From: Flavobacteriales bacterium
Lineage (GTDB): Bacteria > Bacteroidota > Bacteroidia > Flavobacteriales_F > PHOS-HE28
DNA length: 30,537 bases
NCBI GenBank assembly: GCA_040881405.1
Contig: JBBEDG010000167.1
Span: 1 to 30,537 of the forward strand
Direction of reading: 5' to 3'
Every line of letters begins with the position of its first letter. Positions within the stretch are counted from its first letter, which is position 1. The notes under the pieces are model-generated. The model ran no database searches, had not been told where the DNA came from, and was given only the letters and a program-made list of their open reading frames with translations. Positions 23,778 to 29,485 of this stretch are shown piece after piece. Both the position numbers and the translations under genes were made by a program.

Positions 23778-24824
23778 TCAGGCGCCCAACACACGCATCA
23801 AAGCACCGATCTGCGAGGTCCACAAATTGCGGGTCTCCTCCACTTCATCGGGCCAGGCATGGTCGGTCACGATCAGCGCCACCTCGTTGGTCATAGCGTC
23901 GATCTTCACCCTGAACTCGAAAAAGGCGTTCGGGTCATCATCGTCATTGCGCCGGAAGCGGATCACCTCGCCGGCCTTGCGCCCGATCATGGTAGCCTCT
24001 TCTTCCTCGCCGTCCCACATGAAGGTGTACTGGTCGTCGCGCACGTTCACATCATTGCAGTACCATTCGGCGAATCCGCTCGGGGTGCTAATAAGCTCGT
24101 ACAACATGGTTGGCGAGCTACGCACTTGGAACTCGATCAGCACACGCTCCTTCAGGGGCTTCTTGGCTGCCAACTCGGCTGCTTTCACCTTGGCCACTGC
24201 GGGCTTTGCTATGGGAGCCGATGGTGTTGGGGCTGGTGCTGTGGCGGCTTTAGGCGCCGCAGTCTTCGCAACGACCTTGGTGGGTGCTGCTTTCTTGGGT
24301 GGGACCACTACTTTCTTCTCGGCCGCCTTTGGCGCAGCAGGCTGCTTGACCGCCGCTTTCTTGGTCACCACGGCCTTCGTCGTCTTCTTGGCTTCAGGTT
24401 TCGTAGCTGCTACCTTCTTCACCACTGTCTTTTTCGCCGGAGCCTTCTTCACCTTGGCTACAACCGCTTTGGTAGACTTCGTCTTTGTGGGCGCCGTGGG
24501 TTTTGCTTTGTGCACAGCAGCTTTCGGTGCTGACTTCTTCGCTGCAGTACCCTTGCCCTTGCTAGCTGCGCTGGACTTTGTTGACAGAGCTTTAATTGCC
24601 GGCCGTGCAGGTTTTTTAACGGTCGGCTTCTGTTTGGCGAGGGTCTTGGCCACCACCTTTTTGGCAGAGGGCTTCACCTTGCTTTTAGCAGCAGCGGGCT
24701 TGCCTTTTCCAGTGTTCTTGGCGGCAGCGCCCTTTTTCGCGCCTTTGCCCGCAAGAGGTTTGGCGTTCTTGGTGTTTGCCGCTTTGGAGCCCTTGCCCGT
24801 TGCAGCGATCTTCTTCTTGGCCAT
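23778..24824 (-). CDS. Histone-H1-like Lys/Ala/Pro-rich N-terminus (223 aa) fused to a Bacteroidota START-like (START_2-type) domain (125 aa)
   Basis: Single uninterrupted 348-aa frame. C-terminal IEFQVRSSPTMLYELISTPSGFAEWYCNDVNVRDDQYTFMWDG..FFEFRVKIDAMTNEVALIVTD..LWTSQIGALMRVLG matches the START-like family. The N-terminus (24156-24824) is K/A/P/T/V-rich low-complexity sequence. Confidence 0.82.
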   Translation of the reverse strand: MAKKKIAATGKGSKAANTKNAKPLAGKGAKKGAAAKNTGKGKPAAAKSKVKPSAKKVVAKTLAKQKPTVKKPARPAIKALSTKSSAASKGKGTAAKKSAPKAAVHKAKPTAPTKTKSTKAVVAKVKKAPAKKTVVKKVAATKPEAKKTTKAVVTKKAAVKQPAAPKAAEKKVVVPPKKAAPTKVVAKTAAPKAATAPAPTPSAPIAKPAVAKVKAAELAAKKPLKERVLIEFQVRSSPTMLYELISTPSGFAEWYCNDVNVRDDQYTFMWDGEEEEATMIGRKAGEVIRFRRNDDDDPNAFFEFRVKIDAMTNEVALIVTDHAWPDEVEETRNLWTSQIGALMRVLGA

Positions 24825-28205: not shown

Positions 28206-28850
28206 ATGAGCGACACGAAGCACGTCCACCACAGGATCGACTACAACAGGATGACGTTTACGGAGGATGAGGCAGGGGGGGACCCCATTGCACTTTTCGG
28301 TCGATGGATGCAGGCCGCCGAAGAGGATGGCCTACCCGAACCACATGCCATGACCTTGGCCACAGCGGGCAGTCTCACGATCAGTTGCCGCGTGGTGTTG
28401 TTGCGCTCCTTCGACGCGCGTGGCTTCGTCTTCTACACGAACCACAATAGCCGCAAGGCCTTGGATCTTGAGCGGGATCCACGCGCAGCGATCAACTTCT
28501 TCTGGCCGCAACAGGAACGACAGATCCGCATCGAAGGTCGCGCCGAGCTTGTTAGCGACGAAGAGTCCGATGCCTACTTCGCATCGCGTCCACGTGCGAG
28601 CCGCATAGGTGCGTGGAGCAGCGATCAAAGCCGCCCCGTGCAGGACCGTGAACAATTGGAACAGCGCTTCACACGTTGGACCGAACGCTTCCCTAACGAT
28701 GAAGTACCGCGCCCGTTGCACTGGGGAGGATACCGCATCCGTCCTGTGCGCATCGAGTTCTGGCAGGGCAGGCCGAGTCGCTTGCACGATCGTTTGGCAT
28801 TTGAGCAGATGTCCGACGGGCAGTGGTTGCGCACGCGCTTGCAACCGTGA
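28206..28850 (+). CDS. pdxH: Pyridoxamine 5'-phosphate oxidase
   Basis: Motifs EPHAMTLAT, RVVLLR, FVFYTNHNSRKA, RQIRIEG, YFASRPRASRIGAWSSDQS, WGGYRIRP and EFWQGRPSRLHDR. Start is ATG 28206, with a near-consensus -7 element TACCTTCG at 28180-28187. Confidence 0.96.
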   Translation: MSDTKHVHHRIDYNRMTFTEDEAGGDPIALFGRWMQAAEEDGLPEPHAMTLATAGSLTISCRVVLLRSFDARGFVFYTNHNSRKALDLERDPRAAINFFWPQQERQIRIEGRAELVSDEESDAYFASRPRASRIGAWSSDQSRPVQDREQLEQRFTRWTERFPNDEVPRPLHWGGYRIRPVRIEFWQGRPSRLHDRLAFEQMSDGQWLRTRLQP

Positions 28851-28871: not shown

Positions 28872-28910
28872 GAAAGCCCCCTGTCCATCGGCAGGGGGCT
28901 TTCGATTTTT
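28872..28910 (+). terminator. Rho-independent terminator after pdxH
   Basis: Perfect 12-bp stem GAAAGCCCCCTG / CAGGGGGCTTTC with an 8-nt loop, followed by GATTTTT. Confidence 0.8.
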
Positions 28911-28981
28911 GCAGTGTTACGATACCGCTTGTGCTGGTGAACTCCAGCTGTGCGGTGCACAATGGAAGTGCCTGAACGCAG

Positions 28982-29008
28982 AAGACCCCCGGGTTCGCCG
29001 GGGGTCTT
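28982..29008 (-). terminator. Terminator-like hairpin after the THX-like gene
   Basis: Perfect 11-bp stem AAGACCCCCGG / CCGGGGGTCTT with a 5-nt loop, 21 nt past the stop at 29030. The U-tract on the minus strand is weak. Confidence 0.7.
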
Positions 29009-29029
29009 TGCTTCTGTGAACAGTTACGG

Positions 29030-29296
29030 TCACTTCTTGGCAGCGGCCTTCTTCGGAGCAGCCTTCTTTGCAGCGGCTTTCTTCGCAGGAGCAGCCTTCT
29101 TCGCAGCGGCCTTAGCAGGAGCAGCCTTCTTGGCAGCAGCCTTCTTAGGAGCAGCTTTCTTGGCAGCGGCCTTCTTAGGAGCAGCTTTCTTAGCGGTAGC
29201 CTTTTTTGCAGCGGCTACACGCTTGGCAGGACGACTCTTTCCGGTGCTACCGGCAGTACGCTTGCCTTTCTTCGTCTTCATGTCACCTTTTCCCAT
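29030..29296 (-). CDS. 30S ribosomal protein THX (bS31)-like core with a histone-H1-like (AAAKK/AAPKK)n C-terminal tail
   Basis: 88 aa from ATG 29296. The first 27 aa, MGKGDMKTKKGKRTAGSTGKSRPAKRV, follow the THX pattern GKGDxxTxxGKxxxG[ST]xGKxRP. The remaining 61 aa are 12 AAxKK-type units. It has its own exact -7 element and a downstream hairpin. Confidence 0.8.
   Translation of the reverse strand: MGKGDMKTKKGKRTAGSTGKSRPAKRVAAAKKATAKKAAPKKAAAKKAAPKKAAAKKAAPAKAAAKKAAPAKKAAAKKAAPKKAAAKK
29033..29215 (-). repeat. Coding tandem repeat with a 15-nt unit (AAAKK/AAPKK) and a 30-nt higher-order unit
   Basis: 12 units. 29132-29161 and 29162-29191 are 29/30 identical. Confidence 0.9.
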
Positions 29297-29320
29297 TGTC
29301 TGGAGTGTTAAGGGTTTGGT

Positions 29321-29328
29321 CAAAAGTA
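29321..29328 (-). promoter_or_regulatory. -7 promoter element (TACTTTTG) for the THX-like gene
   Basis: Plus strand CAAAAGTA is an exact TAnnTTTG on the minus strand, 24 nt upstream of ATG 29296. Confidence 0.7.
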
Positions 29329-29485
29329 TCTGCAAGCTGTAACGCGCACCTCATCGGCAAGGTTGCTTTTGTCAACCTCTTTGTGTTAAGAACGATGATG
29401 GTCATCGACAAGTGTAGGACATCGTTCGAACGTGTTCGTTTCGCATCATCAACACTGGTGCGGTGTTGAACGCAATTGCATGCTG

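Follow-up and report, generated by a model that had tools for sequence, protein, structure and literature searches.

We identify the open reading frame 29030-29296 on the minus strand of the window, i.e. the whole analysed stretch of 30,537 nt, as a genuine and correctly recognisable gene for the ribosomal protein bTHX, its translation of 88 aa plus stop comprising a THX core and a polycationic low-complexity tail that is typical of its clade. We favour, as probable, a model according to which this bTHX is made from its own promoter, docks in the 30S head and carries a polycationic tail that is driven by slippage, serves as a non-specific charge-neutralising appendage and reflects a habit of the lineage. 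The source assembly is a MAG of 1.74 Mb with 58% G+C and 57% completeness, in which a genome search yields one THX match above cut-off, i.e. this gene (36 bits); relatives having THX also carry one THX gene per genome. The nearest named relatives of the gene are Flavobacteriales MAGs, the isolate names of which appear to belong to a Danish activated-sludge series. The features of the gene are compiled in Table 1.

Table 1. Features of the tailed bTHX gene and its flanks (positions in the window)
Feature	Position	Strand	Basis or remark
Tailed bTHX coding sequence, 88 aa	29033..29296	-	translation; stop codon 29030-29032
THX core, residues 1-27	29216..29296	-	TIGR04560 match
Polycationic low-complexity tail, residues 28-88	29033..29215	-	composition, tandem repeats
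Two adjacent 30-nt units (29162-29191 and 29132-29161)	29132..29191	-	29/30 identical by direct comparison
Putative Bacteroidota-type -7 promoter element TAnnTTTG (here TACTTTTG)	29321..29328	-	32 nt upstream of ATG
G+C-rich hairpin, likely terminator, weak U tract	28978..29011	-	19 nt past stop codon

Identity and divergence of the THX core

The assignment is carried by the NCBIfam equivalog model TIGR04560 (ribo_THX, 26 positions, curated cut-off 26 bits), which scores the 88-aa protein at 35 bits and the core alone at 38.4 bits, covering model positions 1-25 of 26. With the Pfam model Thx (PF17070), the gathering score of 29.7 is reached neither by the 88-aa protein (19.8 bits) nor by its core (23 bits). 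The preliminary description had proposed a THX core to be checked with a Thx HMM, and the two models answer differently, the NCBIfam model supporting the core and the Pfam model falling short. Many clear THX relatives are likewise without a precomputed Pfam Thx match, the Pfam model thus being narrower than TIGR04560, and since TIGR04560 is passed we consider the identity settled despite the sub-threshold Pfam score.

Residues 1-27, MGKGDMKTKKGKRTAGSTGKSRPAKRV, agree with the motif GKGDxxTxxGKxxxG[ST]xGKxRP, and the translation confirms the earlier account of a 27-aa motif-bearing N-terminus followed by 61 aa of Ala/Lys/Pro repeats. The motif runs from residue 1, the family-invariant residues G2, G4, D5, G11, K12, G19 and R22 are all present, and the ATG at 29296 yields the MGKGD N-terminus found family-wide. 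An alternative upstream start, TTG at 29335, was rejected as it would place the promoter motif within the gene, and an antisense, Ala/Phe-rich ORF of 130 aa (28950-29342, plus strand) was discarded as the mirror image of the repeat and no gene.

A search of PDB sequences aligns the core to residues 1-26 of Thermus THX (E = 0.001), the best matches being Thermus THX and the plant mitochondrial and chloroplast bTHX proteins; this search returned THX chains from Thermus and plant organelles only, none being from Bacteroidota. With Thermus thermophilus Thx (bTHX; PDB 1FJG chain V) the protein shares the MGKGD...GK...G..GK.RP core and the single copy per genome, whereas the Thermus protein has 26-27 aa and no tail, compared to 61 extra residues here. 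A single-sequence AlphaFold2 model of the 88-aa protein shows one long helix, residues 21-79 (mean pLDDT 67.8, pTM 0.28), as is typical of Ala/Lys-rich low complexity, and we did not use it as evidence for a fold.

We compared the core in an alignment of 14 THX cores and in a second alignment of 12 genus-level proteins. The hydrophobic or aromatic residues that are typical of the family at positions 13, 14 and 18, although non-defining, are missing here (R13, T14, T18): the genus core has R13, T14, T18 and S21 compared to I13, W14, Y18 and Y21 in Thermus, and most other relatives retain I13, a mostly hydrophobic residue 14 and Y/F18. Elsewhere in the family, R13 occurs together with Y14 and Y18 in Xanthomonas, and T18 is found in several MAGs. 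The genus THX cores score 28-38 bits versus 41-55 bits in other Bacteroidota and are the weakest in our survey, which, together with the Pfam score below the gathering score, we count against the favoured reading. As a side observation on the genus cores (29216-29296 and loci L013, L015-L025), position 18 is occupied by A, H, R or K in some relatives, and R13, A14 and T18 are shared by one other family bearing a (PAAKK)n tail (L011).

The tail, its transcription unit and its distribution

The tail (residues 28-88, 61 aa) is composed of A32, K23, P5 and T1, resulting in a net charge of +23, and divides into 12 pentapeptides of the AAAKK/AAPKK type; together with the TIGR04560 score, this count bears out the initial suggestion of a THX/bS31 core joined to a polycationic tail resembling that of histone H1. 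Tandem Repeats Finder reports for 29033-29212 a period of 15 with 11.8 copies and a period of 30 with 5.2 copies and 84% matches. The 30-nt duplication that had been taken as a sign of slippage expansion was recovered by direct comparison and agrees with the tandem repeats and the gap pattern within the genus; judged from the near-identity of its two units, this pair is apparently the most recent duplication. In an alignment of ten genus copies and four near relatives, the gaps are mostly blocks of approximately 5-10 residues, i.e. repeat units, which fits ongoing slippage with the reading frame retained. As far as sequence comparison can tell, this shows a tail in which replication slippage adds or removes units of 15 and 30 nt, its frame and composition being kept genus-wide.

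The gene is flanked on one side by a SpoU methylase gene and on the other by the end of a PNP oxidase gene that converges on it, with a HU gene approximately 1 kb off, and its neighbours (AlgH-like, PNP oxidase, SpoU methylase, HU) are unrelated to THX. Of 11 relatives, 7 also have the -7 motif, located at -31 to -34; TAnnTTTG is the consensus of the -7 element in Bacteroidota promoters. A weak sigma-70 site (TTGACC/GACAAT) ending one base from the ATG was dropped in favour of this conserved motif. The 71-nt stretch containing the hairpin folds with -30.9 kcal/mol (z = -3.4), none of 200 shuffled sequences folding as well, and relatives have a G+C-rich hairpin at the same place with varied stem sequence, whereas a simple terminator scan did not call the hairpin on the minus strand. 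It is reasonable to regard THX as made from its own putative promoter as a single-gene unit with its own hairpin, in agreement with what had been noticed initially. Two separate strong hairpins, 28872-28903 and 28978-29011, are located between the convergent PNP oxidase gene (plus strand, ending at 28850) and THX (minus strand, ending at 29030), one per gene.

Among 24 sampled genomes of the same genus, 23 have THX, and the ten genus copies that were read out comprise 70-97 aa in total, all with the same repeat tail; the public genome collection adds four further close relatives with 61-80 aa. In other families of the class THX proteins range from 37 to 167 aa, including one of 125 aa with approximately 19 PAAKK units, and in 80 named genomes of Bacteroidota, Acidobacteriota, Gammaproteobacteria and other phyla the totals range from 28 to 207 aa, the tails in class relatives and other phyla comprising 1 to ~180 aa. 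A profile search against 1.84 billion cluster representatives resulted in 2336 matches; the best 149 of these, a sample biased toward relatives of the query profile, show a median tail of 37 aa, with at least 61 aa in 41 of them and 133 aa in the longest. Of 401 genomes drawn evenly from the phylum only 78 contain THX, the open frame being at most 60 aa in 51 of these and at least 88 aa in seven including this one. THX is thus a dispensable protein which could have changed its role, and we count this, too, against the favoured reading.

Across these samples, long THX tails appear as a common minority form overall and as the rule in this clade. The novelty that had been considered for the long tail is thereby lost: tails of at least 61 aa in 41 of the best 149 of 2336 matches, tails on all ten genus copies and the THX forms aligned in File S2 of Yutin et al. 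2012 (PMC3353972) show equally long tails to be routine as far as sequence data go. In the tailed THX proteins from the databases and from PMC3353972, the core likewise continues into a C-terminal extension that is basic, of low complexity and rich in Ala/Lys/Pro/Val; in comparison, the (AAPKK-AAAKK)n tail described here is purer and more regular with no acidic residues, whereas many lineages mix in Glu, Thr or Val.

We also observed THX genes in MAGs labelled as Acidobacteriota (Pyrinomonadaceae, Chloracidobacterium), Gemmatimonadota, Steroidobacteraceae, Phycisphaerae, Brocadiia and Desulfobacteraceae (loci including L035, L039, L040, L046, L048, L050, L054, L062 and L099), the spread over phyla being wider than 'Thermales and Bacteroidetes'. 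In L099, from a Gammaproteobacteria MAG, the THX frame extends to 193 aa and its tail lacks low complexity; a fusion or an artefact of read-through may account for this.

File S2 of PMC3353972 aligns THX proteins of 59-61 aa from Xanthomonas and Stenotrophomonas with A/K/V/P tails and one of ~97 aa from Flavobacteriaceae bacterium 3519-10; where the main text of that paper treats THX, the tails are undiscussed. Among cultured species, Chryseobacterium defluvii also has a tailed THX, of 53 aa. Our literature search on bacterial THX tails, covering few subscription journals, returned this supplementary alignment and no main-text discussion, and other papers present THX as a short (26-residue) peptide of thermophiles. 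THX is nowhere mentioned in the papers on the ribosome structures of F. johnsoniae and P. gingivalis, and both organisms are absent from the 2012 list of THX genomes (PMC3353972). Metagenomic relatives of 63-134 aa are annotated by NCBI and JGI as '30S ribosomal protein THX' or 'bTHX'; with TIGR04560 being passed, the expectation that annotation pipelines would call the gene histone H1-like fails for those relying on NCBIfam. The gene is thus an ordinary family member, tails being common in THX and its relatives being annotated as THX already.

Ala/Lys/Pro arms on other proteins of the lineage

A six-frame scan of the assembly for strict Ala/Lys/Pro segments revealed three ORFs, i.e. THX, bL21 and a DksA/TraR-type protein. 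The bL21 (G000:C3:3535-4053; locus L102:169-687, plus strand) has 173 aa, with Ribosomal_L21p matching residues 1-101 at 127 bits, and carries a 72-aa C-terminal extension with terminal AAPKKAAAKK repeats as in THX. The third ORF (G000:C177:13672-14775; locus L103:1-1104, minus strand) encodes 367 aa with an N-terminal Ala/Lys/Pro/Val arm of ~200 aa and a DksA/TraR-type zinc finger in its C-terminal region (PF01258, 29.8 bits). Within the window, a START_2 protein (23781-24824, minus strand; PF19569, 115.8 bits, residues 225-348) has a basic low-complexity N-terminal arm of 223 aa rich in K/A/P/T/V.

The bL21 open frames comprise 166-314 aa in 20 of 20 genus genomes with a match versus 104-187 aa in other sampled families, a comparison of stop-to-stop frames that is made without phylogenetic correction and is only suggestive; the longer frames outside the genus include lineages with a PAAKK-tailed THX. 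The tails of THX and bL21 share 88% DNA identity over 68 nt, no higher than among the internal repeats (83-90%) and approximately as expected from the same peptide and codon bias, so that there is no case for exchange and we rejected gene conversion between them. A metagenomic protein of 143 aa (P0118) combines a Pfam Ribosomal_L30 match with an HC2-type match and adds a further ribosomal protein to those bearing a lysine/alanine tail.

That bL21 and non-ribosomal proteins of this genome bear the same tail argues for AAPKK/AAAKK arms being a lineage-wide habit on ribosomal and other, mostly nucleic-acid-binding, proteins and not a THX-specific invention. Ntountoumi et al. 2019 (PMC6821194) describe low-complexity regions rich in lysine for bacterial ribosomal proteins and for bL21 in particular; like the THX tail, such regions are terminal, Lys/Ala-rich and borne by a small ribosomal protein. 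The passages considered do not name THX.

Models for the role of the tail

The structures of Thermus and plant organelle ribosomes suggest that the THX core would dock in a cavity of the 16S rRNA at the top of the 30S head, the tail exiting this pocket as a flexible polycation with a charge of approximately +23. Plant plastid bTHXc (PSRP4) and mitochondrial bTHXm likewise combine the THX core with terminal extensions, but these differ from Lys/Ala repeats and contain targeting peptides, the bacterial tails apparently being a different, independent addition. The C-terminal extension of chloroplast bTHXc contacts uS7c on the head (bioRxiv 10.64898/2026.07.03.736309), suggesting that a THX C-terminus is able to reach the subunit surface; that report states the extension to be absent from bacteria. 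By analogy, the C-terminus of the bacterial protein may reach the head surface as well, and the tail would rest on neighbouring rRNA or on another nucleic acid, or move across it, binding it as an appendage that neutralises charge without specificity, comparable to the lysine-rich bL21 tails. We infer both the ribosome binding and the tail function of this THX.

The alternative that survives best, though we consider it rather improbable, is that the tail is an essentially neutral by-product, GC-rich Ala/Lys/Pro repeats slipping on any terminus that tolerates them with no specific ribosomal function. Such a process would account for a tail length that varies freely (34-70 residues in the genus, 1 to ~180 in the family) with no conserved motif, for the same repeat on unrelated proteins of the genome and for the many THX proteins that are short or missing altogether. 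However, the lysine-rich frame is retained in every genus copy read out and the tail is never wholly lost, an overwhelmingly basic character is shared by the tails of independent lineages, suggesting that charge is selected for, and the repeat is found mainly on nucleic-acid-binding proteins (bTHX, bL21, DksA-like).

In its composition and its pentapeptide periodicity, the tail resembles the C-terminal domain of histone H1, chlamydial Hc2 (PF07382) and the Burkholderia H1-like protein (NF038053). The protein could act mainly, or as a second task, as a nucleoid protein of the histone-H1-like type, the diverged core binding the 30S head weakly or not at all and the tail condensing DNA like Hc2 or AlgP. 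The loss of the hydrophobic and aromatic positions in the lowest-scoring core of the family would fit such a role, as would a gene standing apart from ribosomal operons and ~1 kb from a HU gene. We nevertheless consider this unlikely. The sub-threshold matches, i.e. HC2 (PF07382) with 23 bits against a cut-off of 40, NF038053 with 26.3 against 80 and NF038052 with 13.8 against 135, are low-complexity matches to the tail only; we rejected the HC2, H1-like and Rpf matches as family membership, all being compositional and far under the cut-offs, and the resemblance to H1 and Hc2 is, judged from these profiles, compositional and establishes neither homology nor a role in DNA binding. The core keeps the invariant THX residues, and a location away from ribosomal genes is general for THX genes, according to the text on THX in PMC3353972. 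As the core still passes the curated equivalog model and as bL21, an undoubted ribosomal protein, has the same tail, we treat the nucleoid role as a minority view. A broader version, according to which the THX tail of tail-bearing Bacteroidia is a functional histone-H1-like arm projecting from the 30S head and contacting in trans either mRNA, on these SD-blind ribosomes, or DNA and other ribosomes, the weakened, aromatic-free core of the genus allowing the protein to partition between ribosome and nucleoid, appears to us similarly doubtful.

Least plausible, and in our view very improbable, is a tail acting in trans in translation, either as a cationic arm of the 30S head that captures mRNA in the SD-blind Bacteroidia or as a bridge between hibernating or polysome ribosomes: the chloroplast bTHXc extension reaches uS7c, uS7 sits close to the E site and to where the mRNA exits, an extended 61-residue chain could by calculation span up to ~20 nm, and the Bacteroidia ribosomes sequester their anti-SD sequence (PMC7797042) and so rely on other mRNA contacts, yet tail length is not conserved, and tailed THX occurs also in Xanthomonadaceae and Acidobacteriota while most sampled Bacteroidota are without THX, so that the tail does not track SD-blindness.

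The reading of a bTHX with a charge-neutralising tail of a kind common in its lineage therefore is the one we prefer. On its own this gene matters little, being a recognisable bTHX whose tail is one of thousands alike. A sizeable share of bacterial THX proteins, though, bears long basic tails, while the papers searched treat THX as a 26-residue thermophile peptide or skip the tails. Ribosomes with a tailed THX bear on whether lysine-rich tails, as found on bTHX and bL21, do more than charge neutralisation.
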